A model generated the notes under the pieces. That model saw only the letters and a program-made list of their open reading frames with translations, did no database searches and had not been told where the DNA came from. From assembly GCA_015233405.1 (NCBI GenBank), contig JADFXT010000006.1, positions 67,848-131,847 of the forward strand: a DNA stretch of 64,000 bases. The letters are read 5' to 3'. The position numbers and the translations under genes are program-made. Shown piece by piece: positions 9,506-25,060 of this stretch. Each line of letters begins with the position of its first letter. The stretch's first letter is position 1. The stretch comes from Candidatus Omnitrophota bacterium (GTDB lineage: Bacteria > Omnitrophota > Gorgyraeia > Zapsychrales > Zapsychraceae).

Positions 9506-9540
9506 GAATAAATAACCCTTTCTAAGATTTGAATCCGATC

Positions 9541-11034: not shown

Positions 11035-11072
11035 ATTCGTTAATCTCCTTCAAGCTGGCATATCATTTCTAA

Positions 11073-11107
11073 ATGGAGCCCCACGGGTTTACCCGTGGTA
11101 CCTCCAT
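11073..11107. other. GC-rich imperfect stem-loop in the largest intergenic gap
   Basis: Sequence atggag-cc-ccacggg-ttta-cccgtgg-tac-ctccat. A 7-bp core stem with a 4-nt loop, plus a 6-bp outer stem. It sits between the stop at 11178 and the start at 11034. No U-tract follows it on the minus-strand transcript. Confidence 0.5.
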
Positions 11108-11177
11108 CTCTTCTAGATTATTCCTCGCGAACATCCCCGTAGCAGGGCGATTTCGCCTTCTTTAATTTTTTTTGCAT

Positions 11178-13043
11178 TCATCCACAGGCTTGCCTATGGT
11201 TTTCCCTGCCTGCCGGCAGGCAGGTGCAGAGGTGGATAAATTTATTAAGACTGTCTTCCGTAATTTTATAAACATATTTCTCTAAATACAGGGCCGCTCT
11301 TTCTCTTTGAGAAGCGAACTTCTTGTCGTCGAGACTATCAATTTCCTCCAGTGTCTTCTTCAAAGAGTCCCCATAAGTAACCGTCCATTTTAGGTCATGG
11401 CAATTAAACAGCGTATCAAAACTTAAAATAAAACCATTATTAAAATGAATGACCGGCCGCCCCATCTTTAAGGCTTCCATAGCGACCGCCGTTCCCCAAT
11501 AGATAACCACATTGGCCTCCGTGATGTCTTCTATTAAGGATTTATTATGAGATATCGTAATATTGGGCTTTAAATATAGTTCAGGAGATATCCGTTTCTT
11601 AAGATACTCCCACGGCAACAATGGATGTGTTCGAATATTAATTTTATAACGCTCGTCACCTTTCAGCTCCCGAAGGACATAATCCGCCATCAGCTGAACA
11701 TCTTTGATCCCTTCCAAGGCCAATAAAATATTTCCGTCGCGTTTGCGGGGGAGAGCTGTTTTAGAAAACACATTTTCGAATCTCAGCCCACAGGCAGGGA
11801 TAATCTTGTCCTCAGGATAAGAACCATAATGCCTCATCATCTCTTTGCTTTCCAGTCCTAACGTCAATATTTTATCCGGCAAAGGGACCGCGGCATATTC
11901 TTTCGCGCCAAGAAACAAATTGATGGCGGCCGGCGGGATCACCGTATGCTGATAACTGAAAATTTGCGTCGTCGGCGAATATTTTCTTAAGGCCAAGATC
12001 GTCATTTTCTCCCACGGATTATTTTCATAAACCATTACGATTTTTTTTACTCGCACCTTTTGGGCAAGTCGTTTCATGGCCGAATAACAAAGGAATTGAT
12101 ACGGCTGAATTTTATGGCCGGTTTGTCGCAATTCATTCTTGACGATTTCTGAAGCCTCATATCCGCAGAAAGAAATCTCCTTTCGGACTTTCACTCTGAA
12201 AAACAGTGGAATAAACGAATCTCTCCAAGCGTCCCACCAGGACACGAAATATTCCAGTGGAATGATAAGGTCCGTAGATATTTTTCGGATCTCTTGCATA
12301 GCGCGCCGATAATTTCCCAACACATTGACCAGGATCAAAAGGTTTTCCTTACCACGAACATGCGCCGTCAACTTTCCAAAGAAGGCGTCTTGATAAACCC
12401 CTGTGGTTTTAAAAGAACTATCATAGGTGAAACTTTTAATCACATAATACGGCTCATGGGTTAGCCTTGCCGCTATCCTTTTCTGAAGAAAAACACGGGC
12501 ACAAAGAATTCTTCCCGTCACAAGAAGAACGGTCCAGAGCGCATTGACGATCCTCTTAATATAGCTGGCAAGAAAAGCCTTGCCCTTTAAATAAAATCCC
12601 TTAAACCGTATGCCGTAGTCATTTCCCTTGATAAGACCAGCAAGATGATTGGACAAAAATGGCGACGCTCCGATAATGAATAAAAAATCATAATCCTTCC
12701 GCTTAATAGCGTTCATGCATTTTAAGAAACTTTCTAACGCGCTCGGCAATCTGGAGGTATAACGGTTCTTGGACGAGATATCCGTGGCCCACCACAACAA
12801 GCCCTTGTTATCCAAGGATAGCTCCGCGATCAAATCATTATAGGCGCTTATAAATTCCTCGCTGGACAATCCGGACAAAGGATCCTTGACGGCAAACACG
12901 TTCTGCGCAGATAAAAATGATTCAACATCCTCATTGATAGGCTCAAAGGAAAGATATTTACAATTCAGCCCTTTTTCCTTAAGGATTTTCGCAATCTGCG
13001 GTTTGATTATATGGCTATTGGGAATAAAAATAATTTGGGACAT
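11178..13043 (-). CDS. uncharacterised surface-carbohydrate biosynthesis protein, putative GT-B/TagF/capsule-type transferase
   Basis: 621 aa with no motif I can name with certainty. The C-terminal third (ILLALEG...NIRTHPLLP...VVIYWGTAVAMEALKMGRPVIHF) resembles the C-lobe of GT-B transferases. Confidence 0.35.
   Translation of the reverse strand: MSQIIFIPNSHIIKPQIAKILKEKGLNCKYLSFEPINEDVESFLSAQNVFAVKDPLSGLSSEEFISAYNDLIAELSLDNKGLLWWATDISSKNRYTSRLPSALESFLKCMNAIKRKDYDFLFIIGASPFLSNHLAGLIKGNDYGIRFKGFYLKGKAFLASYIKRIVNALWTVLLVTGRILCARVFLQKRIAARLTHEPYYVIKSFTYDSSFKTTGVYQDAFFGKLTAHVRGKENLLILVNVLGNYRRAMQEIRKISTDLIIPLEYFVSWWDAWRDSFIPLFFRVKVRKEISFCGYEASEIVKNELRQTGHKIQPYQFLCYSAMKRLAQKVRVKKIVMVYENNPWEKMTILALRKYSPTTQIFSYQHTVIPPAAINLFLGAKEYAAVPLPDKILTLGLESKEMMRHYGSYPEDKIIPACGLRFENVFSKTALPRKRDGNILLALEGIKDVQLMADYVLRELKGDERYKINIRTHPLLPWEYLKKRISPELYLKPNITISHNKSLIEDITEANVVIYWGTAVAMEALKMGRPVIHFNNGFILSFDTLFNCHDLKWTVTYGDSLKKTLEEIDSLDDKKFASQRERAALYLEKYVYKITEDSLNKFIHLCTCLPAGRENHRQACG
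11180..11237. repeat. GC-rich palindromic element overlapping the 3' end of the 621-aa CDS
   Basis: Perfect 20-nt palindrome cctgcctgccggcaggcagg (11205..11224). It is flanked by an outer inverted repeat, atccac (11180..11185) / gtggat (11232..11237). The element encodes the last ~19 codons (IHLCTCLPAGRENHRQACG) of the ORF 11178..13043. Confidence 0.6.
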
Positions 13044-13058
13044 AATAAAAATTTTTAA

Positions 13059-14960
13059 TTAAGAACTTGTAAGTAGTTTACGAAATCTTTCTATTGCTTT
13101 TCCGTCTCGAAAAGGATCCATCAAGGGAGAATTCAAGGGAAAAGGATTCTGCCAGAGCCCCGACCTAACTTCTTCAACCTTCTTTTTAAGTTCCTCATAA
13201 CTATGGGTCACAACACCTGGTGTTTGGCTGTAGATCATCTCTTTATACAACCCTTGTGGGTCGTGCCACACCGCCGGCTTATTAAAACTTAGCGCTTCAA
13301 AAGTTGTGGACGTAAAAGGAAAAGAAATGATCATGTCGGCAAAATTAATAACTTCTGTTGCATCAGAAAAGTTAAGAAATATTTTTATTCGCGGGTGGTC
13401 TGACATTTTCTGATATAAACGCAGCAAATCGCCCCCTCCACCAGGGTCAAAAAGAGAAAGGAACTCTCTACCTTTTTTCTCTTTCAGAAACAAAAAAATG
13501 CGCGAATCGCTTTCCACTAACCTTAAGAGATGTTCAGCAAACATTGTTCCTTCACTATAATTAACCAGACCATTTAAAGAATAGGTTGTGTCAAATGCCC
13601 CGATCACAAAATGCTGTTCATCCTTGTTCATGCCATCTAAACATTGCACGGTTTCATATTGACTCCACAAACATCCGACAATATGCGTTTCTTTTAAATG
13701 ATGCGGGTGGGAGCAAAAAAAATCACGGACAAACTCATTCCACGTCACAAAATGATCATAAAATAAATATGTCCAAAAAGGATGCCGCATCAAACACGAT
13801 TTACTCTCCGTACGAAAATTGCATCCCATGTTAATTGAATCTGTAAAATACCAAGTTTCTATTCCCGCCTGTTTTAACGCACAATTCCTGGCAATGTGAT
13901 GAAAACCAAAATCGCAATGAGTAACAAAATGTTTTATCTCAATTTTCTCCAAGGCATTTTTCCATCTAAAATAAACAAATAAAATCGCCATGGCATGTTG
14001 GAATTCGCCCTTATTTTGTTCGATGTAGTTCTTCCAAAAAATATTCAGCAATCGCCACCAAACGTGAAAATGGCAGAACAACTGTCCTGGTCTAGGAAGA
14101 TAAACCATATGAAATGGCTGTTGAGCTAATTTTATTCTTTGCGCTTTGCTGAATTGAGAAGATGAAAAGCAAACAACATCTTTCACCTGGATAGACTTTC
14201 CATCAGCAAAAAAAGCAGGGCCGCGTTTATTATCCTCTAACTGCCGAGAGCTGATTAAGGCAACACCAAAACGATAAGATTTTTTAGCGGAAACTTTTGG
14301 AAAAAACAATCCTAAAAATAGGCTAGCTAACGTTTGCAATAGAAGCAGAACGCTGGTCCCTATAATTTTCCCCATATTTTTTCTAAAATCTTGATGATAA
14401 CTCTCTTTGGAAAATTCTAGATTGTCATGATGGAAAAAATCCTGCCGACTCAAAAGTAGCAACTCGCGAATTTCATTATAATCCGCGATATTAACTTCCG
14501 GATAAAATATAATTGGATCGAAATTCAAATATTTAGAAACTCGCTCGACAACAATGTTCTGCGCGTAAAACTCTCCCAATCTTTCACATAAAAGCTTCTT
14601 AAAAGCATTTTCCGCTTCCCGATCTTTTAAAACATCACAAACAAAATCAATCAACAGCTTATGCTTCCGATAATATGCTGGATAAACAGCCTCCACAACT
14701 TCAACCGCTTTGTCCATGGCTATGCCATGAATCGTTTTACTTTCTATATCCTTAGTAGAAATAAAGAGTATCTTGCCTTCTTGAACAAGCTGATCAATAT
14801 GTGAAGGCAGAGAAGAAGGAAATTCTGCAATTTTTCCACCTTTTTTATGATGACAAGCAAAAGGCTCCATAGCATAAACAAGTGAAGCATCCTTCAGATA
14901 AGCCTCTACTGTTTTCTCATTTAGCTTAAAAAACGATTCTAAAACAATTTTCCGACTCAT
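13059..14960 (-). CDS. uncharacterised polysaccharide-biosynthesis protein with C-terminal PFTS motif (putative GT-B-like transferase)
   Basis: 633 aa with one central hydrophobic stretch (IIGTSVLLLLQTLASLFLGLFF). The C-terminus reads ...DHPRIKIFL...ADMIISFPFTSTTFEALSFNKPAV. I recall an NCBI family named for this PFTS motif, but that needs HMM confirmation. Confidence 0.45.
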   Translation of the reverse strand: MSRKIVLESFFKLNEKTVEAYLKDASLVYAMEPFACHHKKGGKIAEFPSSLPSHIDQLVQEGKILFISTKDIESKTIHGIAMDKAVEVVEAVYPAYYRKHKLLIDFVCDVLKDREAENAFKKLLCERLGEFYAQNIVVERVSKYLNFDPIIFYPEVNIADYNEIRELLLLSRQDFFHHDNLEFSKESYHQDFRKNMGKIIGTSVLLLLQTLASLFLGLFFPKVSAKKSYRFGVALISSRQLEDNKRGPAFFADGKSIQVKDVVCFSSSQFSKAQRIKLAQQPFHMVYLPRPGQLFCHFHVWWRLLNIFWKNYIEQNKGEFQHAMAILFVYFRWKNALEKIEIKHFVTHCDFGFHHIARNCALKQAGIETWYFTDSINMGCNFRTESKSCLMRHPFWTYLFYDHFVTWNEFVRDFFCSHPHHLKETHIVGCLWSQYETVQCLDGMNKDEQHFVIGAFDTTYSLNGLVNYSEGTMFAEHLLRLVESDSRIFLFLKEKKGREFLSLFDPGGGGDLLRLYQKMSDHPRIKIFLNFSDATEVINFADMIISFPFTSTTFEALSFNKPAVWHDPQGLYKEMIYSQTPGVVTHSYEELKKKVEEVRSGLWQNPFPLNSPLMDPFRDGKAIERFRKLLTSS

Positions 14961-15059: not shown

Positions 15060-16247
15060 TTATAATTCATCTATTAATGGGATTTGAGGTGATACGACCG
15101 GAAACATGATATTCAGGATTTCTTTATTCAAGAAATCTTTAAGGGCAAGGATTTGTTCTGCCGAAACAACTCCAAATATCATTTTCTGCCAATCATGGAC
15201 AGAAAGAAATCCTGCTTCTTTCTGTTGTTCGCCTGGTCTCAACAAGACCTTTAATTTCTCTCGTGCAAAAGAAAAATGAACATCACCTACTTCGAGCTCA
15301 AAATCTTTGACTAAAGATCTCTTTAACCTCAATTCCAAGACGGGCCCAATCAAACCCAAAAAATCAATCAAAGAAGTGATCCGGACGATATGTCCTCCAT
15401 TCCAAACATGCCGTGTTGAAATTTTATGCGGCATCTCACGCAAATAAAAACAAAGCGGGTGGCACAACCCCAGCTCAAAATGGACATCTCCGCTAGACGC
15501 TAAAGGCCCCGGATGAGTAGAATGAAATAAGGAAAGAAGCTCCATAGCATAAGCATCTTTAAAACCAAATTCGTAAATCACGTTATCTTTTTTAAAGACA
15601 TAACCCACAACATCATCATCGTTTTCAAAAACATAGGAAGACAGATTCATGCGCTGAGCGTTTTTAAGATAATAATTCCAAAGTGTCTCGCTTCGATTCA
15701 GAGCCCCAAGTACATTTTGATAGGTCAACTCAAACAATTCCTGCACTCGAGGGATATGGTGAGATTCCAAGAGGTTGATGTGGGTATCTGATTCATCTCG
15801 AGGAAAAACAGCCGTATCTACCGTTAACTGGCCAAAATTTGTAAATCCGGTGAATCCGTAAGGATACCAATAACCGTCAACTTTTTTACGCGAGATTCCA
15901 ATACACAATGCCGCATTTTTATCAATATAGTCAAACATCCTTTCTTTCAAGGCGGTGGCCACAGAAAAATCCCGAATCTTCGGATGAACGGCAATCATGG
16001 ACAATCCCGCAAGCTTTAAAGGGACGCCAAAATAGTTAAATTCCCGGTCCACTAAACCAAGGACTCCGACAATTTCTTTCCCCTGTTCTTTCGCAATAAT
16101 AAATTGCAAGCCCGGCCTGTAATTCAGAACAAAATCAAATAAAGCTCGGCCATCAGAATAATTCATGCCGAAACTCCTGGATAAGAAATCTAACACAGAC
16201 TCCCGATCCGAAGGACTCAATTGCGGATAAACTTTACATTCAAACAC
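15060..16247 (-). CDS. GNAT-family N-acyltransferase with C-terminal extension (Eis-like GNAT + SCP2-like layout)
   Basis: 395 aa. GNAT core VGVLGLVDREF...LAGLSMIAVHPKIRDFSVATALKERMFDYI, followed by ~200 extra residues. Assignment is by eye only. Confidence 0.45.
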   Translation of the reverse strand: MFECKVYPQLSPSDRESVLDFLSRSFGMNYSDGRALFDFVLNYRPGLQFIIAKEQGKEIVGVLGLVDREFNYFGVPLKLAGLSMIAVHPKIRDFSVATALKERMFDYIDKNAALCIGISRKKVDGYWYPYGFTGFTNFGQLTVDTAVFPRDESDTHINLLESHHIPRVQELFELTYQNVLGALNRSETLWNYYLKNAQRMNLSSYVFENDDDVVGYVFKKDNVIYEFGFKDAYAMELLSLFHSTHPGPLASSGDVHFELGLCHPLCFYLREMPHKISTRHVWNGGHIVRITSLIDFLGLIGPVLELRLKRSLVKDFELEVGDVHFSFAREKLKVLLRPGEQQKEAGFLSVHDWQKMIFGVVSAEQILALKDFLNKEILNIMFPVVSPQIPLIDEL

Positions 16248-16931
16248 TTAGACTCCTCCATCAATTGAAATAGCAGATCCGTTCACATAATCAGATTTAA
16301 TCAAGAACTCAATGGCGTTGACAATATTCGAAACATCGCCGAAAGTTTTCGTAGGGATTTGATTTAAAATCTCTTTCTTTTGCTGTTCATTAAGTTTATT
16401 AAGCATCCCTTTTTCAAAATATCCCAGCGTTATGACATTTGAAGTAATATTGAATCGGCCGTATTCTTTCGCTAAAACGCGAGACATTCCTAACAATCCT
16501 GATTTGCTCGCCGAATAAGCGATTGTTCCCGGAGAACCTTGAATCGCGCCCAACGAAGAAACGTGAACAATCCTCCCCCATCGAGCCTCAATCATTTGCG
16601 GAAGCAAAGCCTGAGACAAAAGAAAATCCCCTTTAAGATTCACGCCTAACACATGGTCCCAATCAGTCTCGTTATAATTCGCCGCTATCCCATCGATTTT
16701 TACCCCGGCAAAATGCAAAAGAACGAGCTTAGACAATTTATCTTTCCATCGCTGGACAAATGATTGAATAGCAAGCGGATCCTCTAAATTTAACTGTTCA
16801 AGAATCAAATTCTTATGAGACGGGAACTCCGGTAAAGTTTTATTATAAATCCCCACCACCATATCCATTTCAAGCAAAGGCATTACCAATTCTCTACCAA
16901 TCCCACCTGACACGCCCGTCATAATAATCAT
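16248..16931 (-). CDS. short-chain dehydrogenase/reductase, 3-oxoacyl-ACP reductase (FabG)-like
   Basis: The ORF track extends to 17033. I start the gene at ATG 16931 (MIIMTGVSGGIGRELV Rossmann), which gives an ATGA overlap with the upstream stop. Catalytic SSLGA...YSASKSG (S, YxxxK). Confidence 0.8.
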   Translation of the reverse strand: MIIMTGVSGGIGRELVMPLLEMDMVVGIYNKTLPEFPSHKNLILEQLNLEDPLAIQSFVQRWKDKLSKLVLLHFAGVKIDGIAANYNETDWDHVLGVNLKGDFLLSQALLPQMIEARWGRIVHVSSLGAIQGSPGTIAYSASKSGLLGMSRVLAKEYGRFNITSNVITLGYFEKGMLNKLNEQQKKEILNQIPTKTFGDVSNIVNAIEFLIKSDYVNGSAISIDGGV

Positions 16932-17905
16932 AAATTCCCCTCCCATTTTAGAATACACCCACCCCAAGAATATCCGACGCCAAAACCAAGAAGTAAAATT
17001 TGATTGCCTTTTTTCAAACGTTTTTCCTCCCAAGCGTCTTTAAGAGCAATTGGTAACGAGGCAGACACCGTATTGCCAATACGCTGATAATTCGTGTACA
17101 CTTTGCGTTCATCGATTTCCATTCGTCGGACAATATTATCGATCACCAATTTGCTGGCCTGATGGAAAATAAACAAATCAATATCTTGTAGTGTCTTTCC
17201 GCTTTTTTTAAGTAAACTCTCCACACATTGCGGCACAGTTCCCATAGTAAACATAAAGACCTTCGCGCCGTTCATGAGTAGTGCCGGTGGATGTTGTTCC
17301 ACCACGTCCTTTCGCGTTCCGCTATTTTTTACAATCAAATCACAATATCCTGAGCCGTCTGTTCCCATCTCAAAAGGTCCCAACCAATCCTTATCGCTAA
17401 AAGTTAAAACAGTCGCTGCCGCTCCATCACTAAAAACCGGACGACAAGTGCGATCTGCGCTATCAATATACTTTGTATATGTTTCGCTACAAATGACAAG
17501 TCCCTGCTTGACGAGTCCGGCTTCAATCAAAGACCCTCCCATGGCAAGCCCATAAACATAACCGGAACAGCCTAGATTAACATCGAAAGCCATGCATGAT
17601 TTCTTAAGGCCCAATCGGTCTTGCAAAATGCACGCAGAAGTAGGGAGAACATAATCCGGAGACTGCGTAATAAAAATAAGAAATTCTATGTCCTCTTTCT
17701 TAATCCCCGAGGAAAAAAGTTTTTCGGCAGCCAAAACTCCCATATCCACAGCGGTTTCCTGAGGACCCGAAATATAGCGCGTACTAATACCGGTCTTCTG
17801 CTCAATCTCATCAATACGCCAATCCGGATTATCCTTCTTAAGCGCCTGACCGTTTTCACAAAGACGAGGAAGGTAATATTCAATCGCCTGAATTCTAGCT
17901 TTCAT
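16928..17905 (-). CDS. 3-oxoacyl-ACP synthase III (KAS III / FabH-like)
   Basis: 325 aa. The catalytic triad contexts are present: AFDVNLGCSGYVYGL (Cys), IFHQAS (His), IGNTVSASLP (Asn). Confidence 0.85.
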   Translation of the reverse strand: MKARIQAIEYYLPRLCENGQALKKDNPDWRIDEIEQKTGISTRYISGPQETAVDMGVLAAEKLFSSGIKKEDIEFLIFITQSPDYVLPTSACILQDRLGLKKSCMAFDVNLGCSGYVYGLAMGGSLIEAGLVKQGLVICSETYTKYIDSADRTCRPVFSDGAAATVLTFSDKDWLGPFEMGTDGSGYCDLIVKNSGTRKDVVEQHPPALLMNGAKVFMFTMGTVPQCVESLLKKSGKTLQDIDLFIFHQASKLVIDNIVRRMEIDERKVYTNYQRIGNTVSASLPIALKDAWEEKRLKKGNQILLLGFGVGYSWGGCILKWEGNL

Positions 17906-17926
17906 AATCGGTTATTTTCCCTGAAA

Positions 17927-18172
17927 TCAAATTAACGAATGTTTCTTTAAAATATCCAAAATCTTTCTGACCGAATCCGCGGTGGCAATTTCTTTAATTC
18001 CGCCGACCTTTCCACTAAAAAACTTATCCAACGCCACAATAATCCCCAGATGTCCAAGCGAATCCCATTCTGTAAAATCCGCCATCACGCTATCGATAGT
18101 AATTTTCTTATCCTTTAAATTCAATGCTTTTTGAATAAGATTCAAAACTTCACTTTCGGAAATATGGGCCAT
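17927..18172 (-). CDS. acyl carrier protein
   Basis: The ORF track extends to 18226. The best start is ATG 18172, preceded by AAGGAGAG. The product is 81 aa with the phosphopantetheine-site context FTEWDSLGHL. Confidence 0.75.
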   Translation of the reverse strand: MAHISESEVLNLIQKALNLKDKKITIDSVMADFTEWDSLGHLGIIVALDKFFSGKVGGIKEIATADSVRKILDILKKHSLI

Positions 18173-18189
18173 AAAACGCTCTCCTTTTA

Positions 18190-19209
18190 TCAGCCTTTTA
18201 AAACTTCTTTCTTTAAAATTGTACAAATTTCCCCAACCAATCCTTCCTTCGTTTCATTATGACAATCAATGACCAAGGCTTTGCGATAATCCGGATTAAG
18301 CATATTTCGCGCAAAATCGAAATGAAGAATCGGCAAATCCACATTTACTTTCTTCTTAATATTCTGAACAATATTCTCTGCTTTCGCAGGATCAACTTTT
18401 ATCGGAATTGCCCACGGAACGACATCGCTCTCGAGACAAATCGGCACAAGTTTTGGAAAAAAAGATTTAACGGCCTTCCATATATTTCTTCGCCGTTCAA
18501 TATCAGCCACAACTTCCTCTTTAGTTTTAGGCAAAAGGCTTTCGGCCTGCTGAGGGAAAGAAACAACTTCAGGCAAATATCCATAAACCGAGGCGATTTC
18601 AAAAACGGCATCATTTCCGCATTGAATTTTTTGATATTTTTCTAGAGTCCTATAAGCCTTTTCAACCCAAACCTTGTCCCTCGGGCTTAAGAATTTTATT
18701 TTATTTTCAACTTCTTTAAGAAATTTTTCTCGAGAAGAAACCAACGCCCCGCCTAAAATGCAGGGAAAAATTTTAGAAAAACTTACAACGGAGAAATCTC
18801 CCCAACGTACCACATTTTGACCTTTATAACTGGAAGAAATGGTATGCGCGCAATCGCTTACAATAATCCACTTATTTTTCTTAGCAACATCTTCGATCAA
18901 AGAAAGATTTTGAGGAAATCCGAACTGATGAAAAACCATAATGGCTTTTGTACGATGCGACGGAGTCATTGTAGGAAATGCGGTTCTTGACAAAGCAGAC
19001 AGCACCGCTTGGCACATATAAGGAGCAACCAGGATCTCATCCATACGCTTTATTCCTAATGCGCGCAATCCAGCGACGAGACCTGCGCGGGCACAGGAAA
19101 CAGGAATTGCCCCTTTTCCAATCTGCGATTCCATGGGCTTAAGAAAACTGGACGAATGAACAATACCTCTCAATTCTCTCCTCCTTCCAGAAAATCTGGC
19201 GGCAACCAT
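18190..19209 (-). CDS. divergent DegT/DnrJ/EryC1/StrS-family PLP enzyme (aminotransferase-like)
   Basis: 339 aa. Motifs: VSCARAGLVAGLRALGI, DEILVAPYMC, TKAIMVFHQFGFP, IVSDCAHT, FSVVSFSKIFPCILGGALV. The Lys lies 7 residues before GG, as in the two other DegT homologues here. The alternative start at 19134 would remove the 40-nt overlap. Confidence 0.55.
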   Translation of the reverse strand: MVAARFSGRRRELRGIVHSSSFLKPMESQIGKGAIPVSCARAGLVAGLRALGIKRMDEILVAPYMCQAVLSALSRTAFPTMTPSHRTKAIMVFHQFGFPQNLSLIEDVAKKNKWIIVSDCAHTISSSYKGQNVVRWGDFSVVSFSKIFPCILGGALVSSREKFLKEVENKIKFLSPRDKVWVEKAYRTLEKYQKIQCGNDAVFEIASVYGYLPEVVSFPQQAESLLPKTKEEVVADIERRRNIWKAVKSFFPKLVPICLESDVVPWAIPIKVDPAKAENIVQNIKKKVNVDLPILHFDFARNMLNPDYRKALVIDCHNETKEGLVGEICTILKKEVLKG

Positions 19210-20300
19210 CCTTCATAAAAACGCTCCATATGACCTGCAACCTCTGCCTTCATCTGCTGACCGTCCATATAACAATGCCAGAAAGTCTTTGGCAATAAAA
19301 ATCCGCCACAACGCTCTTTGAAAGTAGAAATACTTTTTTCCTTATCTGTTGGAACATACAAGAACTGCGGATGATAATAAATCTCCCCAAGCTCATAAAA
19401 ACGAAAACCGGCATTTTTATAATAACGAATTGCTTCCCATTCAAGCAAATGCCGAGGAGAGAATTCCTCATAGTCCTCAACATTGGCCTGTGACCAACCA
19501 AAAGCCATACGGTGGAATTCCCCGCAATAAAGATAACTGATCGCCTGGCCGTCTTTAAACGCAACAAAAAGAGTCGCAAAGCCTTCCTGGGCGGCTTCAA
19601 ACATCACATCCCATGTTTCCTGTGGACGTGTGATACGTCCTGCAACTTGAATATGTAGGTCTTCATAACGGTAAAAAAGATCTTTTAATTCATCAAGATT
19701 TGTAGCTTTATTAAAAACTTTTATTGTGATCCCGGCAGCGGAAGCCCGATGAATATTTCGCCGATGATACTTACTGATATTTTCCAGCAATTTTTCTTCA
19801 GGTTCATGCAAATCAATAACCGAGGTATTATTCACAAATGGTAACATCCCATACCGCGCAAACTCAAAGGAATACCGGTGACTCAACTCTTCCCCTGAAC
19901 AAGCACTTCGATTTAGCGAATGAGTGGCCATCTGAATAAATTTTACATTATGAACCTTAACTAATTCACCAATTCGACTGAAAATAACCTTCATCACTTT
20001 CCGACGAAGACTCGGCCGAAGATGCATGACAGCGGGCGACCCAAGAGGAATCCCCGAATAGGAAAGTTCGTTATAATTCTTCCGCTCATTAAAAGAAACC
20101 GCCAAGGGGCATAGACCGATTACTTTACGCGTCTCCAGATGCAAAAGCGCAAAGGTATGATCTTCTTTGATCCTCGGGAATTTAAGACAATACGTTATCC
20201 AGTACCACGAGTGATAATAACTCGTCTGTTCGTTTTCTAAACACCAACCGTCCCAAGTTTGACGGTCAACCTCTTTAAAAGGAATAATTTTAAATTCCAT
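19170..20300 (-). CDS. FemAB / Acetyltransf_6 (CelD/BcsL-like) family acyl- or aminoacyl-transferase
   Basis: 376 aa. Motifs: SYYHSWYW, KYHRRNIHRA, ATLFVAFKDGQAISYLYCGEF..MAFGWSQ, FSPRHLLEWEAIRYYKNAGFRFYELGE. Confidence 0.55.
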   Translation of the reverse strand: MEFKIIPFKEVDRQTWDGWCLENEQTSYYHSWYWITYCLKFPRIKEDHTFALLHLETRKVIGLCPLAVSFNERKNYNELSYSGIPLGSPAVMHLRPSLRRKVMKVIFSRIGELVKVHNVKFIQMATHSLNRSACSGEELSHRYSFEFARYGMLPFVNNTSVIDLHEPEEKLLENISKYHRRNIHRASAAGITIKVFNKATNLDELKDLFYRYEDLHIQVAGRITRPQETWDVMFEAAQEGFATLFVAFKDGQAISYLYCGEFHRMAFGWSQANVEDYEEFSPRHLLEWEAIRYYKNAGFRFYELGEIYYHPQFLYVPTDKEKSISTFKERCGGFLLPKTFWHCYMDGQQMKAEVAGHMERFYEGWLPPDFLEGGEN

Positions 20301-20515
20301 TATGACACTCCATAACTGTTCATAAATGATAATCCCGGCAAGGTGAACATAACTGTTTGAGAACCCACATTCCCAACATTAAACAAACAATTAAAATCCG
20401 TATTGCAACAGGACACATCCCCGTCGGAGAAGATAAAAAAATCTTCACCTTCTAAACGATTACATCTATCAAACAGATATTGTTTGAGTTTTTTGAATAG
20501 TTTGAATATTAACAT
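20300..20515 (-). CDS. 71-aa Cys-rich micro-ORF resembling a detached SPASM/twitch segment (possibly a gene remnant)
   Basis: The ORF opens with TTG at 20530; the first ATG is at 20515. Its stop overlaps the next start (TAATG). DGDVSCCNTDFNCLFNVGNVGSQTV aligns without gaps to DGTVNMCCFDYDGKLTIGDLKTQSL of the rSAM at 8561..9505. Confidence 0.35.
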   Translation of the reverse strand: MLIFKLFKKLKQYLFDRCNRLEGEDFFIFSDGDVSCCNTDFNCLFNVGNVGSQTVMFTLPGLSFMNSYGVS

Positions 20516-20535
20516 GCCCCCTGATCTCAACCTTT

Positions 20536-21678
20536 TTAATTTTTAGATAGCCGCTGTAAACATTCCTGAAGCCTGGCTTCTCCTTGAGTCAAAGACAAAC
20601 GGACATAAGCCCCAGCCGATTGTCCATACGAAAGACCGTTGACGGAAGCGATCCCATAGCGCGTCAAAAGCTCTTGGGAATTCTTCTCTGGCTCAGCTCT
20701 CAACGAAGAAACATCCATCATCGCATAAAACGTACCTTCTGGCTTAATCAGACGAAACGGAGTGCGGCCTATCCCGGCGCCCATCAAATCCCTGCGAGAT
20801 TGATAAACACGGCTCATTTGACTTACAGAATCTTGACTTCCCGTCAAAGCTGCTAATGCTGCATACTGACTTTGAGAGCTCGCACAGGTCGCTGTGTGCT
20901 GATGAATAAGCCCTATTTTTGCAATCATTGGCTCGGCCGCCAGGATATATCCGATGCGCCAGCCAGTCATCGCATAATTTTTGGAGAACCCACCGACGAC
21001 AATGGCCCTATCCCGGACATTTTCAAACTGGCTTAACGATGTAAAATCCATGAAAACGATCCGGTCATAAATCTCATCCGAAACAATAATTAAATCATGT
21101 TTCACGGCAAGGGCCACGATATATTCTAATTCTTTTCGGCTAAACACATAACCCGACGGATTAACCGGATTATTGATAAGGATCATTTTTGTTTTTGGTG
21201 AAATGGACGACTCCAAACGGTTTAAATCCGGCGCCAAGTCTGCTTTCGCTGGGATAAATTTCGGAACGCCTTCATTTAAAAGGATCATATCTCCATAACT
21301 TAACCAGCACGGTTCAAACAAAATTACTTCATCTCCTGGATTTAAAAAAGCCTGCATCAAGTACATAATCCCCTGCTTCGCGCCGGGGCAGACCAACACC
21401 TCTTTCAAAGGCGCATATTGGGCTCGATAATATTGCTGATAAAATTCCGCGATGGCTTGCCGTAATTCCACGACTCCATAAGACGCTGTATAACCATTTT
21501 TTCCTTCACAAATAGCTTTCCAAGCCGCTTGTTTAATATGCTCGGGCGTATCAAAATCCGGCTGACCAAAGGTCAAATCGATAATATCCATTGCTTTCTG
21601 TAACTCTTTGACCTTCTGTGCCATGGCCATAGACTCAGAGGCTTTCAATAAACTCAAACGCTGGGCGAATTTCTGCAA
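20536..21678 (-). CDS. class I/II PLP-dependent aminotransferase (AspC-like)
   Basis: Motifs: GQPDF, NPSGYVF, SDEIYDR, FSKNYAMTGWRIGY. I set the start at TTG 21678, with AAGGAG 7 nt upstream and 1 nt after the upstream stop. The ORF-track start at 21708 is also TTG, and ATG 21630 is another option. Confidence 0.85.
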   Translation of the reverse strand: MQKFAQRLSLLKASESMAMAQKVKELQKAMDIIDLTFGQPDFDTPEHIKQAAWKAICEGKNGYTASYGVVELRQAIAEFYQQYYRAQYAPLKEVLVCPGAKQGIMYLMQAFLNPGDEVILFEPCWLSYGDMILLNEGVPKFIPAKADLAPDLNRLESSISPKTKMILINNPVNPSGYVFSRKELEYIVALAVKHDLIIVSDEIYDRIVFMDFTSLSQFENVRDRAIVVGGFSKNYAMTGWRIGYILAAEPMIAKIGLIHQHTATCASSQSQYAALAALTGSQDSVSQMSRVYQSRRDLMGAGIGRTPFRLIKPEGTFYAMMDVSSLRAEPEKNSQELLTRYGIASVNGLSYGQSAGAYVRLSLTQGEARLQECLQRLSKN

Positions 21679-21679
21679 C

Positions 21680-23692
21680 TCAATACTCCTTTGTATAAAG
21701 ATTTTCAATCAACATTTGCTGCAATTTGTCTCTTTGTTTCACAAATCTTTTTTCTTTATCCTTACTTAATAAACCCCCACGTCCATCCGCTATTCCGATA
21801 ATCCGTGACGGCCTATCAAAATAGTCAACAACAATGCTGCCCTTCGGGCCGATATACCCGCCGGAAACCACACAAATACCGCGCATATTTTTCATGCCGG
21901 CGGATTGAGCCGCTTTTTTAGTTTCAATCGCTAAATTTAACTCCGACGCTAAAGCCGCTTTTGTATCCACGCGGCAAACACGATGTCCCTTCCCACAGAT
22001 GGCATTCCAAAAATCTTCAGGAAATGCACCAGGACGGACCTCTAAAACAACAACATCCGAAGCCATGTCTAAGGCAGATTTTTTACTCAGAGTTTTGGCA
22101 TAATTTATCCCAAAAGAAATAACCGTTCCAATCTTTTCTAAAATAGTTTTCCGCTTTAATGTCCCCGGCAGTTTGACAACTCGAATGCCCTGTTGGCCCA
22201 AAACAGTTTTCAATATCAAAAAATCCTCATCGGAAGAAAAAACAAGGACGTCCTTCTTCGGTTTCGATTGAGACAACAATGCCAGAACACTTAAATATAG
22301 AACGCGTTTTTCCGAATACCAGGCCAAACGGCTTCTTTGAATTTTCCTGTCAAGGCCCTGCTCTCTTAATAAAGGCGCATCCTCATCCAATAATAACCAG
22401 TCCACTTGTCCGTCGAGAGCCTCAACGATCTTTTCCATATCTTTGATCATCCCAACCTCAACATTGCTGATGACGAACGCTGGACTTTGACGAATATAAG
22501 GAAATCTTGTCTTTCCGTCGGAAGAAATCGTCAAACAAAAAACAGATTCCTTACCTGTTTTCTTAGATTGACTGACCACATCCTGGGCTATCGTCTGGAT
22601 CTGTTCGAGCACACTGTGAAACATCTTGACAGCTGGAATCCCGGAACTCCCGAAACCCATAGCTCGGCCATCTTTCTTTTGTGCTTTACGAATCTTCTGC
22701 GCAATTTTTTCTGCTAAAGAATATGAGACGTTGACCCTGTCTTTTTCACTGACTTCCATAATCAGCCTCCGCGGGTCAATGTTATATTTTTTCGCGACAT
22801 CGTAAATAATCTTCGAAAAACCCGAATGAAACTGGGCGATACCCGACACCAAGCTCATATCATCAACGCCTTGGGTCCGCGTCACCATCGGCTTAATCAC
22901 GCGCTCACCTAAATCTAAGGTTTTATAAATATCGATTCCTGTCTGATAACCTAATTTATCCGCAACCATTACCAGTATTTCCGTCTGCGTATTTCCAGCG
23001 CTACGGCCAATTCCCTGCAGGGAAGAATCCACCATATCCGCTCCGCTGCGGATAGCCTCAAGCGTATTAGCAACCGCCAACTGCAGATTATTATGCCCAT
23101 GAAAACCAATCCGCTTGTTCGTCACGTCCCTCAGACCCTCGACATAACCGCGCACATCTTCCGGAAACATTCCGCCGGCAGAATCCACAACCGTAATCAC
23201 ATCCGCACCGAACTCATCGGATTGCTTTGCCAATTTTAAGAATTCTTTAATTGAGACAGCGTAAGACTTCATCAAATTGGAACAGACAACCATCCCTAAT
23301 TCTTTTGCCTTCTCAATATAGGGCTTGGCTTGGCTGATTTCCGTCACGTTAGTGCCAATGCGAATAAAATGCAGCCCTAAGCGATTTGCCATGATCAAAT
23401 CGTCCATCGTGCCAATCCCAGGGATAAAAAACATTCCTATCTTTGCTTTTGTTTGATTTAACGCCTTCTTCGCGGAGAGAATATACTCCTCGTCACTCGC
23501 GGCTGGATATCCTTTATTAACCCTCGCGGATCCCAACCCCGTCCCATGCCCAATTTCAATCCACGGGAAACCCGCCCGAGCTAATCCTAACACAATCAGA
23601 TAGGTATCTTCCGCCGTGAACTGATGATCGATCAGGTAACTGCCGTCGCGTAAGGTACAATCTAAAACATCGATTTTCTTTTTATTATCCAT
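21680..23692 (-). CDS. DmpG/HMGL-type pyruvate aldolase fused to a ~330-aa C-terminal domain of unknown function
   Basis: 670 aa. Residues 1-~335 carry VLDCTLRDGSY, IEIGHG, VDSAGG and GFHGHNNLQLAVANT (4-hydroxy-2-oxovalerate aldolase-like). I recognise no motif in residues ~340-670. Confidence 0.7.
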   Translation of the reverse strand: MDNKKKIDVLDCTLRDGSYLIDHQFTAEDTYLIVLGLARAGFPWIEIGHGTGLGSARVNKGYPAASDEEYILSAKKALNQTKAKIGMFFIPGIGTMDDLIMANRLGLHFIRIGTNVTEISQAKPYIEKAKELGMVVCSNLMKSYAVSIKEFLKLAKQSDEFGADVITVVDSAGGMFPEDVRGYVEGLRDVTNKRIGFHGHNNLQLAVANTLEAIRSGADMVDSSLQGIGRSAGNTQTEILVMVADKLGYQTGIDIYKTLDLGERVIKPMVTRTQGVDDMSLVSGIAQFHSGFSKIIYDVAKKYNIDPRRLIMEVSEKDRVNVSYSLAEKIAQKIRKAQKKDGRAMGFGSSGIPAVKMFHSVLEQIQTIAQDVVSQSKKTGKESVFCLTISSDGKTRFPYIRQSPAFVISNVEVGMIKDMEKIVEALDGQVDWLLLDEDAPLLREQGLDRKIQRSRLAWYSEKRVLYLSVLALLSQSKPKKDVLVFSSDEDFLILKTVLGQQGIRVVKLPGTLKRKTILEKIGTVISFGINYAKTLSKKSALDMASDVVVLEVRPGAFPEDFWNAICGKGHRVCRVDTKAALASELNLAIETKKAAQSAGMKNMRGICVVSGGYIGPKGSIVVDYFDRPSRIIGIADGRGGLLSKDKEKRFVKQRDKLQQMLIENLYTKEY

Positions 23693-23697
23693 AATGT

Positions 23698-24315
23698 TTA
23701 ACCTTTTTGAGGGGCATGATATAAATACATCGTAAATTCATACAAAGGATAATCATGGCGAATCGTGACATACGGCGTCAAGGTCTTTCCTAAAGCCAAT
23801 GCTTCCTCCGGCGAGAAATGGAAGTTTTTCTCCAATTTATAATCCACATAACTGGAAAGAAAATTGACCGCCACACCTTTGTTGCTCATCCGCATCATCG
23901 CCTTTAACATTGCCTCAACAAAAACCTTATGATTCTTCATTTTGTAACTTAAAGTGCCGGAGGCTAAAACAAAATCAAACTTTTTCTTAAAGGTACCGTC
24001 AAGAATGTCTCTGATCTCAAATTGAACTTTTGGAAAACACTCTCTGGCGCGCTCAATAAGCTTTTCGCTTATGTCAATCCCCATGTAATCAACATTCTTA
24101 AAACATTTTTTTAAGTACGGATAAAGGTCTCCGAGACCGCAACCGACGTCGCAAATCCGTTTTCCAGACAAATCTGCGATCTGCGACAAAACTTTAAACC
24201 GTAGCTCTTGGCTTTCCACGCTTCCCCACCCGACGGATTTGATATGGTGGCCGTATTGGTCATATCTCTCGTTATAAAACTTCTTGAGTTTATTTAATTC
24301 CGGACATTTATTCAT
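23698..24315 (-). CDS. class I SAM-dependent methyltransferase
   Basis: 205 aa. Motif I ICDVGCGLGDL. Confidence 0.75.
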   Translation of the reverse strand: MNKCPELNKLKKFYNERYDQYGHHIKSVGWGSVESQELRFKVLSQIADLSGKRICDVGCGLGDLYPYLKKCFKNVDYMGIDISEKLIERARECFPKVQFEIRDILDGTFKKKFDFVLASGTLSYKMKNHKVFVEAMLKAMMRMSNKGVAVNFLSSYVDYKLEKNFHFSPEEALALGKTLTPYVTIRHDYPLYEFTMYLYHAPQKG

Positions 24316-25060
24316 CTAAGAATTTCCTGACGTTGTCTTCCAAAATCTTTTTTTTCCATTCTTGGCACAATTTCATTTTCGCCAGCTCAGCGACGGAAAG
24401 CTTGACCGTCATCGAATAAGGCCGATCCGGATAATCCGTGCCCCAGAATACTCTTTCAGCCTTAATACTCTTAATGGCATATAAAAGATTTTGGATCACA
24501 TCGGAGCTGCGATAATAAAGCAGCGTATAGGACAAATCCAAATAAATGTTTTTATAAAATTTCGCAACCATCAGCGCGTCAAGGATCTTATGCCCTCCGG
24601 CGTGGCCTATGGCTATCCGGGCATGCGGAATTTTTTCCGCCAAGACAGCAATTTTCTCCGGGACATTCCCTAAAGCGATATTCTTTCCGTCGGGAAAGCA
24701 ATCGATCAAAACCGGCATATTTAAATCCGCCGCCTTTTTAATGAAAGAAATATATAACGGGTCATCCATACGCCGCTGTGCCAGACGTGGATGCAATTTG
24801 ATACCGGTTGCGCCTTTTTTCTTTAACTCACCGATTGTTTTTAATGAACTTTTTTTCAACTCCGGACTTGGAAAAACCCTAAAAAATCCGTCATACACCT
24901 CTGCCGCGGTCAGCACCTCTTCATTAGAGAAAGCAATATCGGGAATGTTTAGCAAAATAATCCCCTCGACCTTGTTTTTTTTTGCTTCCCGATAAAGAAA
25001 ATCCATGGCCCGACGGCAATCGCCTTTCGTCTTATCCAAATGACAATGCCCATCAATCAT
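24308..25060 (-). CDS. metal-dependent amidohydrolase-superfamily protein (Amidohydro_2 / LigI-LigJ-ACMSD-type)
   Basis: 250 aa. Motifs: IDGHCHL at the N-terminus, GIKLHP, AIGHAGG, FWGTDYP. Confidence 0.7.
   Translation of the reverse strand: MIDGHCHLDKTKGDCRRAMDFLYREAKKNKVEGIILLNIPDIAFSNEEVLTAAEVYDGFFRVFPSPELKKSSLKTIGELKKKGATGIKLHPRLAQRRMDDPLYISFIKKAADLNMPVLIDCFPDGKNIALGNVPEKIAVLAEKIPHARIAIGHAGGHKILDALMVAKFYKNIYLDLSYTLLYYRSSDVIQNLLYAIKSIKAERVFWGTDYPDRPYSMTVKLSVAELAKMKLCQEWKKKILEDNVRKFLDE

Follow-up and report, generated by a model that had tools for sequence, protein, structure and literature searches.

Why does a nonulosonic-acid locus carry an acyl carrier protein (ACP), a condensing enzyme and a ketoreductase of its own? 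The question arises from a Candidatus Omnitrophica MAG, in which a nonulosonic-acid locus of 64 kb was analysed over its whole length; this stretch is referred to here as the window. The products of six minus-strand genes in the window (15060-20300) are a transferase of the FemX fold, a short DegT-like PLP enzyme, an ACP, a KAS III, a reductase resembling FabG and a GNAT of the Eis fold. On balance, we favor the explanation that ACP, KAS III, ketoreductase and Eis-like GNAT constitute a private acyl-donor supply with a matched transferase in a Pse/Leg-type locus, the module most likely decorating an amino sugar with a short 3-hydroxyacyl group. The observed part of the argument comes from gene identities, catalytic residues, the privacy of the trio and synteny. 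The genes and their neighbors are as follows.

20300..20530, minus strand: 76-aa remnant of a radical-SAM/SPASM gene (PF13186 7.5e-4, below the cut-off)
19170..20300, minus strand: FemX-fold tandem-GNAT transferase (Acetyltransf_6/FemAB), 376 aa (PF13480 8.7e-11; PF02388 7e-6; TIGR04421 1.8e-17)
18190..19209, minus strand: short divergent DegT-like PLP enzyme of the PLP_IMCC1989 type, 339 aa (PF01041 3.8e-16, residues 85-165 only)
17927..18172, minus strand: dedicated ACP, 81 aa (ATG at 18172, SD-like AAAGGAGAG upstream)
16928..17905, minus strand: KAS III (FabH-type), 325 aa (PRK09352, 271 bits vs cut-off 249)
16248..16931, minus strand: FabG-like 3-oxoacyl-ACP reductase (SDR), 227 aa (TIGR01830 7e-50, below the equivalog cut-off)
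15060..16247, minus strand: Eis-fold three-domain GNAT of subfamily A, 395 aa (PF13527 5e-11; GTG start)
13059..14960, minus strand: PFTS-motif polysaccharide biosynthesis protein, 633 aa (TIGR04417, 120 bits vs cut-off 100)
11178..13043, minus strand: surface-carbohydrate biosynthesis protein, 621 aa (weak TIGR04326 match)

Profiles, motifs and folds confirm, at these coordinates, all six gene identities proposed in the initial annotation. The intergenic gaps are all at most 235 bp, window ends excepted; the KAS stop and SDR start overlap (ATGA), the SDR TAA abuts the GTG of the GNAT gene, and both pairs, KAS-SDR and SDR-GNAT, are translationally coupled. The PFTS protein is a conserved downstream neighbor of the cassette, with PFTS-type neighbors found also in the comparison loci L003/4 and L154 and on the P0210 contig, while the 621-aa protein is 41% identical to a 605-aa protein encoded two genes downstream of the Eis-like GNAT in L169. 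At the other end, the radical-SAM/SPASM remnant, which over 61 aa shares 38% identity with the C-terminus of an intact 364-aa radical-SAM/SPASM gene in L171, occupies the region's one sizeable gap. There it marks the junction of a rearrangement, immediately upstream of the FemX-like gene.

The ACP gave no match in Pfam and only weak ACP matches in NCBIfam, far below the ACP cut-offs. Searched against the PDB, its family profile retrieved ACPs only (21 of 21 matches at E≤0.01; best 2lml, 1e-6), and the modifiable serine on which its proposed role depends is present: the phosphopantetheine Ser lies in EWDSLGH, is invariant in 25 ACP homologues (WDSL) and aligns to Ser36 of E. coli AcpP. The catalytic triad, already noted as intact, was verified by mapping Cys113/His248/Asn278 of the KAS III to C112/H244/N274 of EcFabH. 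Overall, the protein is ~32% identical to EcFabH, its best PDB match being 3gwa (263 bits), with ordinary FabH proteins at ~150-177 bits. The motif TQSPDYxLPTSAC marks the glycan-locus clade of which it is a member; in this clade, the triad is invariant and the ACP-docking Arg249 of EcFabH is replaced by Leu/Met/Ile. The reductase retains the TGxxxGIG and YxxxK motifs and shows 46-63% identity with the SDRs located after clade KAS genes elsewhere, vs ~25% for other FabG-like genes.

The KAS III shares 60-71% identity with over 100 clade proteins from several phyla, and is at most 50% identical to other, non-clade KAS III in GTDB representatives. Among 27 loci with a KAS at least 52% identical, an ACP was found in 21, the cognate SDR in 18 and NeuB in 11, these counts being limited to the available flanks, as many contigs are incomplete. 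Since clade KAS in metagenomic loci is accompanied by the same ACP and reductase amid NeuB and cytidylyltransferase genes, the trio is, judging from sequence comparison, a private module as initially claimed and not a housekeeping one. That the clade retains such identity in nonulosonic-acid loci of unrelated phyla also suggests a laterally transferred accessory module, and makes it scarcely credible that the trio represents ordinary fatty-acid-synthesis initiation genes (fabH, fabG, acpP) lying by chance in a glycan locus. The KAS III does pass the generic PRK09352 cut-off, and the trio, viewed here within 64 kb of the genome, shares with housekeeping FabH/FabG/AcpP the fold, the catalytic residues and the predicted chemistry of the first condensation and reduction. 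Yet, the KAS scores below the fabH model (TIGR00747), the SDR and ACP miss their cut-offs as well, Arg249 is replaced, no plsX/fabD/fabF/fabZ/fabI context surrounds the trio in the window, the setting is a glycan locus, and the syntenic L171 lacks the trio.

Every chemical step that follows is inferred, as are chain length, acceptor and GNAT donor. The ACP would be made holo and malonylated by host enzymes; a Pfam scan of all 56 window ORFs of at least 150 aa detected no malonyl-CoA:ACP transacylase or phosphopantetheinyl transferase. KAS III would condense malonyl-ACP with a short acyl-CoA as primer, acetyl-CoA being the most likely one, and the SDR would reduce the 3-oxoacyl-ACP to 3-hydroxyacyl-ACP, most likely 3-hydroxybutanoyl-ACP. 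There the chain would halt, since the same scan revealed neither a FabZ/FabA/MaoC dehydratase nor an enoyl reductase and since both the ACP and the docking surface of the KAS are divergent relative to housekeeping FAS; the stop at the 3-hydroxy stage predicted earlier holds in that nothing in the window is able to process the chain further. The Eis-like GNAT would then move the acyl group to the amino group of a sugar precursor. This amine is probably created by a neighboring aminotransferase, e.g., the PLP_IMCC1989-type enzyme, which keeps the Schiff-base Lys (SFSK...GG) and an Asp (SDCAH) when aligned to solved DegT enzymes and whose homologues are assigned to Pfam PF27889. A. baumannii makes Pse5Ac7(3-hydroxybutanoyl) and is not known to have such a cassette, so a private FAS is not required for this substituent.

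We consider it unlikely that the product is something other than 3-hydroxybutanoyl, i.e., a 3-hydroxyacyl group not primed by acetyl, or a starter elongated by the host FAS into a lipid-like substituent or anchor. The pocket residues do differ from those of the acetyl-specific EcFabH (Phe87 to Leu, Leu142 to Tyr). Locus L170 pairs a subfamily-A GNAT with KAS III, an AMP ligase, an enoyl-CoA hydratase and an MBL-fold protein, a gene set which implies variable acyl groups, and lipo-sugar components were speculated on by the authors describing the Aeromonas FGI (PMC7874193). However, no elongating KAS I/II was found in the 64 kb, nor any dehydratase or enoyl reductase, the ACP is remote from AcpP with only weak matches, and the sole solved glycan of such a system bears a C4 3-hydroxyacyl group (PMC3927599). 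Less probable still is that the PLP_IMCC1989 enzyme aminates the ACP-bound 3-oxoacyl group to yield a 3-aminoacyl (beta-amino acid) substituent, or that KAS III acts as an acyltransferase and not as a condensing enzyme. The PLP-ACP adjacency is common to the window and L169, and KAS III-like acyltransferases exist in natural-product pathways; but the PLP enzyme also pairs with the FemX-like gene in ACP-free loci, the formation of an amino product would leave the ketoreductase without a task, and the KAS III keeps the full decarboxylative triad, invariant in its clade.

As for the transfer step, three flanking candidates had been named, from which the Eis-like GNAT can be singled out by comparative genomics, while the FemAB-like enzyme is not favored. 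The AF2 model of the GNAT (pLDDT 79) resembles Eis over its full length: the 50 matches that Foldseek listed are without exception three-domain GNATs of the Eis type, aligned in full length, among them Eis of M. tuberculosis, Eis1/Eis2 of M. abscessus and 2hv2/2i00 of E. faecalis (TM ~0.6-0.66; 12-18% identity). The extreme C-terminus, conserved in subfamily A as QIPxID[EQ][LF], is consistent with the C-terminal carboxylate mechanism of Eis. Subfamily A is rare, with five homologues found in a search of 5.8 billion proteins, and in all five contexts its genes lie beside ACP-based acyl-supply genes: the window, L169 (PLP-ACP2-SDR2-GNAT), L170 (KAS III-AMP ligase-GNAT), L092 (KAS-SDR-GNAT) and the P0210 contig (GNAT-MT-SDR-ACP-KAS-PFTS). 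L171 and the window are syntenic up to the PLP gene (identities: ATP-grasp 40%, aminotransferase 45%, HMGL 42%, FemX-like 51% and PLP 50%). This gene is followed in L171 by a different Eis-like GNAT, only 22% identical to ours, with no ACP, KAS or SDR, whereas in the window it is followed by ACP-KAS-SDR and the subfamily-A GNAT. By gene order, the two loci appear to present a natural module swap. Because GNAT and trio are swapped together and the subfamily-A GNAT adjoins acyl-supply genes in each of the five contexts, ACP-KAS-reductase-GNAT (15060-18172) seemingly behaves as a four-gene donor-plus-transferase module. We propose the Eis-like GNAT as an acyl-ACP:amine N-acyltransferase, with acyl-ACP in place of the acetyl-CoA of Eis; the characterized Eis-family enzymes that we know of use acyl-CoA and not acyl-ACP, which counts against this donor.

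That the FemX-like enzyme, and not the Eis-like GNAT, transfers the ACP-borne 3-hydroxyacyl group to the sugar amine seems quite doubtful. Its gene is located two upstream of the ACP gene in the window, and FemAB-like genes are found near ACP cassettes also in L169, L170, L093 and L008. Those genes, however, are only ~25-31% identical to it, while its close orthologues (44-51% identity) have no ACP beside them in five of the six contexts examined, with the PLP partner in L001, L003/4, L171 and L172 and without it in L005. The window's PLP enzyme is 50-51% identical to the partner in L169 and L171. The FemX-like protein had no sequence match in the PDB, but its AF2 model (pLDDT 95.8) has FemX as the best fold, and scores TM up to 0.66-0.78 with the aminoacyl-tRNA-dependent FemX, Sbb17/Sba18 (9wqx, 9wqy), FemA and MprF domain, in comparison to 0.51-0.58 with a clavulanate-pathway tandem GNAT and 0.35-0.46 with acyl-CoA tandem GNATs such as VipF. 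FemX/FemA and Sbb17/Sba18 are only 12-14% identical to it, and its pairing with a PLP enzyme sets it apart from them. Judging from gene neighborhoods, the FemX-like and PLP genes form a conserved pair of their own that does not depend on the ACP module. Since the pair recurs without ACP and the fold is closest to aminoacyl-tRNA transferases, the juxtaposition of FemAB and ACP, called an unusual pairing in the initial annotation, is not supported as functionally meaningful and is largely incidental. Its fallback of N-aminoacylation is favored by the predicted fold: the group that the enzyme adds is more probably an aminoacyl one, taken from aminoacyl-tRNA, a dependence predicted from the model. 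The solved structures of Sbb17 and Sba18 are complexes with streptothrisamine, an amino-sugar acceptor, and the two enzymes would thus be precedents for aminoacylating sugar amines in a tRNA-dependent manner.

Among related systems, the 'Type 1' nonulosonic-acid cassette of metagenomes, for which our literature search found no describing publication, comprises a PseH homologue, a HemK/PrmC-like methyltransferase, ACP, KAS III and SDR (41-59%, 52-71% and 46-63% identity, respectively, with the window orthologues) in the same setting of NeuB, cytidylyltransferase and PseG-like genes. Most members of the KAS clade carry this methyltransferase and PseH homologue, neither of which gave a BLAST match in the window, where the Eis-like GNAT is found instead; the module is thus an atypical derivative. 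Fatty-acid-type genes also lie among pseudaminic-acid genes in group II of the Aeromonas flagellin glycosylation island (ACP, 3-oxoacyl-ACP reductase, AMP-ligase, LuxE, LuxC; PMC7874193) and in Shewanella sfmABCDE (PMC3765264), but both lack KAS III, the former being of the acyl-activation/reduction (LuxCE) type and the latter having the reductase only, with a TPP enzyme, a methyltransferase and an ATP-grasp enzyme.

The closest known system, by analogy with which we infer the chemistry, is the viosamine island of P. syringae pv. tabaci (vioA, vioM, vioT, vioS encoding KAS III, vioB, vioR encoding the reductase, and acp), responsible for N-(3-hydroxybutanoyl) viosamine. There, vioS/vioR/acp are required for Qui4N(3-hydroxy-1-oxobutyl)2Me on flagellin and a vioR deletion mutant is devoid of the modified sugar, while homologous orfB/orfC/orfD/orfG reside in the flagellin glycosylation island of P. 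aeruginosa PAK (PMC3927599). Genetic and structural precedent thus exists for the chemistry initially predicted. Both loci combine a dedicated ACP, KAS III and 3-oxoacyl-ACP reductase near a sugar aminotransferase and an N-acyltransferase in a glycan locus, a likeness of gene content and function, VioS and OrfC themselves being just 35% identical. They differ in the acceptor (dTDP-viosamine on the flagellin rhamnan vs a nonulosonic-acid locus) and in the acyltransferase (VioB, annotated as an acetyltransferase, vs an Eis-fold three-domain GNAT). The private hydroxyacyl supply proposed here would be a variation on chemistry known from Pseudomonas flagellin glycans.

The window belongs to a 141-kb contig of a Candidatus Omnitrophica MAG. 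All 56 of its large ORFs (56/56) are closely packed on the minus strand, and annotating each of them with Pfam and NCBIfam identifies the window as a very large glycan locus for nonulosonic acids (NulOs), with the following content:

Window-wide gene content (Pfam/NCBIfam)
28825-29874, minus strand: NeuB-type synthase
50202-51230, minus strand: NeuB-type synthase
Window, minus strand: four CTP_transf_3 cytidylyltransferases
Window, minus strand: one PseG-like hydrolase
Window, minus strand: two NeuC/LegG-like 2-epimerases
Window, minus strand: several DegT aminotransferases
Window, minus strand: a HisH/HisF-like pair and an AsnB-like enzyme
Window, minus strand: many methyltransferases, radical-SAM enzymes and glycosyltransferases, and an ABC exporter

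At 36744-39338 and 48284-50167 (minus strand) we found a HisH-like glutamine amidotransferase, a HisF-like cyclase and an adjoining 409-aa protein without Pfam hits, with the AsnB-like amidotransferase further on. Gene types of this kind are associated with acetimidoyl or amidated substituents on NulOs and uronic acids. A 716-aa fusion of an RmlD-like/epimerase NAD domain with a full DegT aminotransferase (32800-34950, minus strand) lies upstream of a recurrent aldo-keto reductase, class III aminotransferase and cytidylyltransferase set, which accompanies NeuB also in four of the comparison loci (L001, L006, L008 and L093).

The six genes that the initial annotation had described at 15060-20300 were all confirmed. 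In the order of transcription they are:

19170-20300, minus strand: FemX-like protein (FemAB/Acetyltransf_6)
18190-19209, minus strand: short DegT-like PLP enzyme (PLP_IMCC1989 type)
17927-18172, minus strand: 81-aa acyl carrier protein (ACP)
16928-17905, minus strand: KAS III
16248-16931, minus strand: FabG-like short-chain reductase (SDR)
15060-16247, minus strand: Eis-like GNAT

The FemX-like, KAS III and GNAT proteins each match a database entry labelled Candidatus Omnitrophica at 100% identity. The KAS/SDR and SDR/GNAT junctions are translationally coupled. None of the 64 kb encodes a dehydratase, enoyl reductase, malonyl transacylase or phosphopantetheinyl transferase, and the unannotated gaps are too small for one.

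The KAS III possesses both the N- and C-terminal ACP_syn_III domains of the thiolase fold (PF08545, 6e-21; PF08541, 5e-32) and matches 47 KAS III entries of the PDB at 1e-20 or better. Its triad C113/H248/N278, equivalent to C112/H244/N274 of E. coli FabH (EcFabH), is invariant in the alignment of 30 members of its clade, i.e., the proteins 60–71% identical to it. The CoA-binding Arg152 is likewise retained, while the ACP-docking Arg249 of EcFabH is replaced and the pocket residues Phe87 and Leu142 are changed to Leu and Tyr, respectively. These replacements are constant across the aligned clade members, with Leu, Met or Ile at the Arg249 position. By far the closest solved structure is 3gwa/3gwe (263 bits vs. 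at most 177 for ordinary FabH), a structural-genomics KAS III, presumably from Burkholderia pseudomallei, which was deposited without functional description and carries the clade motif QxPDYVLPTSAC. It may represent a relative of the glycan-associated KAS clade from a cultured organism, open to characterization.

As for the carrier, the ACP has no Pfam hit and matches the NCBIfam ACP models weakly (E ~2e-3), yet a profile built from 21 homologues retrieved exclusively acyl carrier proteins from the PDB (21/21, best 1e-6). The initial annotation had named the lack of a modifiable serine as an argument against its reading; we found the phosphopantetheine serine of the DSL motif, here WDS(38)L, aligned with Ser36 of E. 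coli AcpP and invariant in 25 homologues. The reductase is a classical SDR with the catalytic Ser/Tyr/Lys and the motifs TGVSGGIG and AYSASK (PF00106, 7e-36). FabG proteins make up most of its top PDB matches, the best two being deposited as glucose/ribitol dehydrogenase.

A trio of this composition might represent the housekeeping fatty acid synthesis (FAS) genes of the organism, but this explanation was rejected on gene context and family scores. The KAS III remains below the FabH equivalog cut-off (TIGR00747, 245 bits vs. 292), as does the SDR for FabG (TIGR01830, 170 bits vs. 298). The plsX-fabH-fabD-fabG-acpP context was not found around the KAS III, whose neighbors are glycan genes. An exact-match query with the KAS III retrieved no record. 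Over 100 database clusters make up the clade, with Gammaproteobacteria, other Pseudomonadota, Omnitrophica and unclassified MAGs as their sources, while other KAS III proteins are at most 50% identical to that of the window among the matches listed from 185,000 species representatives. In a scan of genome contigs, at least two true clade members (L009 and L010) appeared among the 80 KAS III proteins listed, which were mostly unrelated. Together with the glycan context and the sub-cut-off family scores, this distribution supports the earlier view of a private, non-housekeeping trio.

Clade contexts were obtained by direct retrieval and by a metagenome scan with an N-terminal, clade-specific alignment, and neighbors were scored by BLAST in the 27 loci with a KAS at least 52% identical to that of the window, many of them on truncated contigs. 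A cognate ACP is present in 21 of the 27 (41–59% identity) and a cognate 227-aa SDR in 18 (46–63%, vs. ~25% for other FabG-like genes). A HemK/PrmC-like methyltransferase of ~240 aa occurs in 22/27, a PseH homologue (TIGR03585, 109 bits vs. a cut-off of 93) in 13/27, and NeuB is within reach in 11/27. Therefore, the usual organization, which we call type 1, consists of PseH, methyltransferase, ACP, KAS III and SDR set among Pse-type genes. A BLAST search of the window for the HemK-like methyltransferase and the PseH homologue found neither. The five-gene type 1 cassette was detected in many lineages (L006–L009, L089–L103, L119, L123, L125, L139, L154 and L169), and its methyltransferase, of the HemK/PrmC-like, amide-N type, lies alongside the ACP. 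We found no description of an ACP-KAS III-reductase cassette of NulO loci in the searchable literature.

The window GNAT (~400 aa; PF13527, 5e-11) has a three-domain GNAT-GNAT-SCP2-like architecture. The 50 matches that Foldseek lists for its AF2 model (pLDDT 79) are without exception Eis-type GNATs with three domains at full length, Eis, Eis1 and Eis2 among them (TM 0.52–0.66). Catalysis by Eis involves its terminal carboxylate; the group to which the window GNAT belongs (subfamily A) has a conserved extreme C-terminus, as expected if the carboxylate there acts in the same way. A homologue search with this GNAT returned only five relatives, and each recovered context adjoins ACP-based acyl-supply genes:

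Gene orders in comparison loci carrying relatives of the window GNAT
L169, first part: NeuB, methyltransferase, ACP1, KAS, SDR1, PseH, FemAB'
L169, second part (identity to window): PLP (51%), ACP2 (58%), SDR2 (60%), GNAT (47%)
P0210 contig: GNAT, methyltransferase, SDR, ACP, KAS, PFTS
L170: ACP-like ORF, SDR fragment, MBL-fold protein, KAS III, AMP ligase, GNAT, Acetyltransf_6, PLP
L092: KAS, SDR, GNAT

In L169, the GNAT is followed by three large or mid-sized genes, the last of them 41% identical to 11178-13043, and then a B12-radical-SAM gene, in the order also seen in the window. The two ACP-SDR pairs of this locus (3749-11188) are paralogous (52–54% identical to each other), one accompanied by PseH and the methyltransferase and the other by PLP and the Eis-like GNAT; with one KAS III only, this arrangement suggests that a single condensing enzyme serves two carriers and two transferases. 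Downstream of the window GNAT, two neighboring proteins of ~620–630 aa without a Pfam domain (11178-14960, minus strand) comprise a PFTS-motif protein (TIGR04417, above cut-off) and one with a weak match to TIGR04326 ("surface carbohydrate biosynthesis"). Large neighbors of this kind also follow the cassette in L003/4, L007, L169, L171 and the P0210 contig, and they may be nonulosonate transferases or polymerases.

The comparison with L171, a syntenic locus without the trio, is decisive for assigning a flanking enzyme to it. Synteny extends over the ATP-grasp ligase (40% identity), class I/II aminotransferase (45%), HMGL-type aldolase (42%), FemX-like protein (51%) and PLP enzyme (50%). After PLP, L171 contains no ACP, KAS or SDR, and its Eis-like GNAT is only 22% identical to that of the window, differs from it at the C-terminus and is 41% identical to the L003 GNAT. 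We had at first read the trio as wholly independent of both flanks, since L001 and L003/4 possess FemAB and PLP, and L003/4 also an Acetyltransf_9 GNAT (adjoining a PFTS protein), all without the trio. This reading was revised after the homologue search with the window GNAT: L003 and L171 have GNATs from another Eis-like subfamily (~21–22% identity to that of the window, different C-terminus). There are thus two Eis-like subfamilies, one without an ACP module and the window's, with such a module in every context seen. Therefore, the four genes ACP-KAS-SDR-GNAT behave as one cartridge that took the place of a simpler GNAT, and the gene context argues that the donor of the window GNAT would be an acyl-ACP.

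As for the FemX-like protein, a sequence search of the PDB gave no match, and its structure was therefore predicted. The model (AF2, pLDDT 95.8) adopts the tandem GNAT fold of FemX, which is also the top Foldseek match (E 4e-15, TM 0.64/0.70), followed by Sbb17, FemA and MprF. The nearest folds comprise Weissella and Staphylococcus FemX, Sbb17/Sba18, FemA and the aminoacyl-tRNA-dependent MprF domain, while acetyl-CoA tandem GNATs score clearly lower. Sbb17/Sba18 are aminoacyl-tRNA-dependent peptide synthases solved in complex with streptothrisamine, an amino-sugar compound. The FemX-like and PLP proteins miss the cut-offs of TIGR04421 and TIGR04422 (FemAB_IMCC1989/PLP_IMCC1989; 64 bits vs. 250 and 33 vs. 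75), and are subfamilies related to, but distinct from, these families, with the gene pairing conserved. The PLP enzyme, ~40–60 aa shorter than typical DegT/DnrJ/EryC1 members, lacks a full-length DegT match (residues 85–165 only, against positions 111–193 of the 360 in PF01041), but alignment to 5k8b and ArnB shows the Schiff-base Lys (SFS-K) and the Asp motif (SDCAH) to be kept.

Close FemAB-like orthologues (44–51% identity) were examined in six contexts (window, L001, L003/4, L005, L171 and L172), a PLP_IMCC1989-type partner being adjacent in five of them and the trio present only in the window; in L001 and L003/4, the pair adjoins NeuB genes with no ACP. Given these contexts and the predicted fold, the pair is best seen as a separate unit for which, on the model, aminoacyl-tRNA is the more likely donor. 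The combination of FemAB with ACP, which had been noted as unusual, is thus mostly a by-product of cartridge insertion beside the FemAB-like gene, as the trio occurs in 1/6 orthologue contexts. FemAB-like genes of other subfamilies (~25–31% identity) recur near such cassettes (L008, L093, L169 and L170), and the two units may therefore interact functionally to some extent on the same sugar.

Directly upstream of the FemX-like gene, a 76-aa ORF (20300-20530, minus strand) retains only the C-terminal end of a radical-SAM/SPASM gene (SPASM, 7.5e-4), with 38% identity over 61 aa to the end of an intact 364-aa gene of L171; it occupies the region's only 235-bp gap and marks a deletion/rearrangement junction. 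The block beyond it (20536-27869, minus strand) encodes a class I/II aminotransferase, a 670-aa HMGL-type (4-hydroxy-2-oxovalerate aldolase-like) protein extended at its C-terminus by ~330 aa without assigned function, a methyltransferase, an amidohydrolase, an L-amino-acid-ligase-type ATP-grasp enzyme, an RraA-like aldolase and a second methyltransferase. Conserved in L171 (396-8975, 40–45% identity), it may assemble an unusual hydroxy- or keto-amino-acid side chain and couple it to the sugar.

Among known systems, the P. syringae pv. tabaci viosamine island comes closest, judged by gene types and clustering; it contains vioA (aminotransferase), vioM (methyltransferase), vioT (glycosyltransferase), vioS (KAS III), vioB (acetyltransferase), vioR (3-oxoacyl-ACP reductase) and acp (PMC3927599). 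These genes are required for the flagellin sugar Qui4N(3-hydroxy-1-oxobutyl)2Me, and the modified sugar is lost in the vioR mutant; the glycosylation island of P. aeruginosa PAK has counterparts, orfB/C/D/G (PMC3927599). The enzymology of the viosamine system is likewise inferred. In common with the VioS/VioR/ACP type, the window combines, within a glycan locus, a KAS III, ketoreductase and ACP with a sugar aminotransferase and an N-acyltransferase. We rejected the Aeromonas group II islands and Shewanella sfmABCDE as equivalents since, despite their fatty-acid-type genes, neither has a KAS III.

The chemistry proposed in the initial annotation, a short 3-hydroxyacyl group placed on the sugar, remains the best available reading. 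Host AcpS/Sfp and FabD would supply malonyl-ACP on the private carrier, KAS III would join it to a short acyl-CoA, most simply acetyl-CoA, and the SDR would reduce the 3-oxo group. The chain would be held at the 3-hydroxyacyl stage because the locus offers neither a dehydratase nor an enoyl reductase and the carrier would be insulated from housekeeping FAS. The Eis-like GNAT would then move the acyl group onto a sugar amine, perhaps made by the PLP enzyme. These steps would be expected to yield an N-(3-hydroxybutanoyl) nonulosonic-acid derivative, N-acetyl being predicted at that position in L171-type organisms instead.

A more far-reaching joint reading would make the GNAT subfamily of the window the first of the Eis family to be devoted to acyl-ACP as donor, co-transferred with ACP, KAS III and reductase as a swappable donor-plus-transferase cartridge that recodes NulO N-acetyl to N-(3-hydroxyacyl), with the FemX-like enzyme aminoacylating the sugar amine from aminoacyl-tRNA. 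We consider this combination improbable. If true, a sialic-acid-like sugar from an ultrasmall or uncultured lineage could end up with a composite substituent, N-(3-hydroxyacyl)-aminoacyl.

NulOs of the pseudaminic and legionaminic types are major bacterial surface determinants, and it is the N-acyl groups that determine their antigenicity and how phages and lectins recognize them; yet the supply of non-acetyl N-acyl groups on NulOs is poorly documented. The locus and its relatives yield a widespread, apparently undescribed ACP-KAS III-reductase cassette specific to NulO loci. The locus is a variant of a known principle and not a new one; what is new is the NulO setting, the cassette's broad occurrence among uncultured lineages, its coupling with an Eis-fold transferase and a natural module swap through which the donor/transferase assignment can be tested. 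The swap between the window and L171 predicts which transferase uses the ACP-bound donor, and the FemX-like enzyme is a testable candidate for tRNA-dependent aminoacylation of NulO-type sugars. Known chemistry is not overturned; rather, the Pseudomonas viosamine paradigm is extended to sialic-acid-like sugars and to uncultured phyla.
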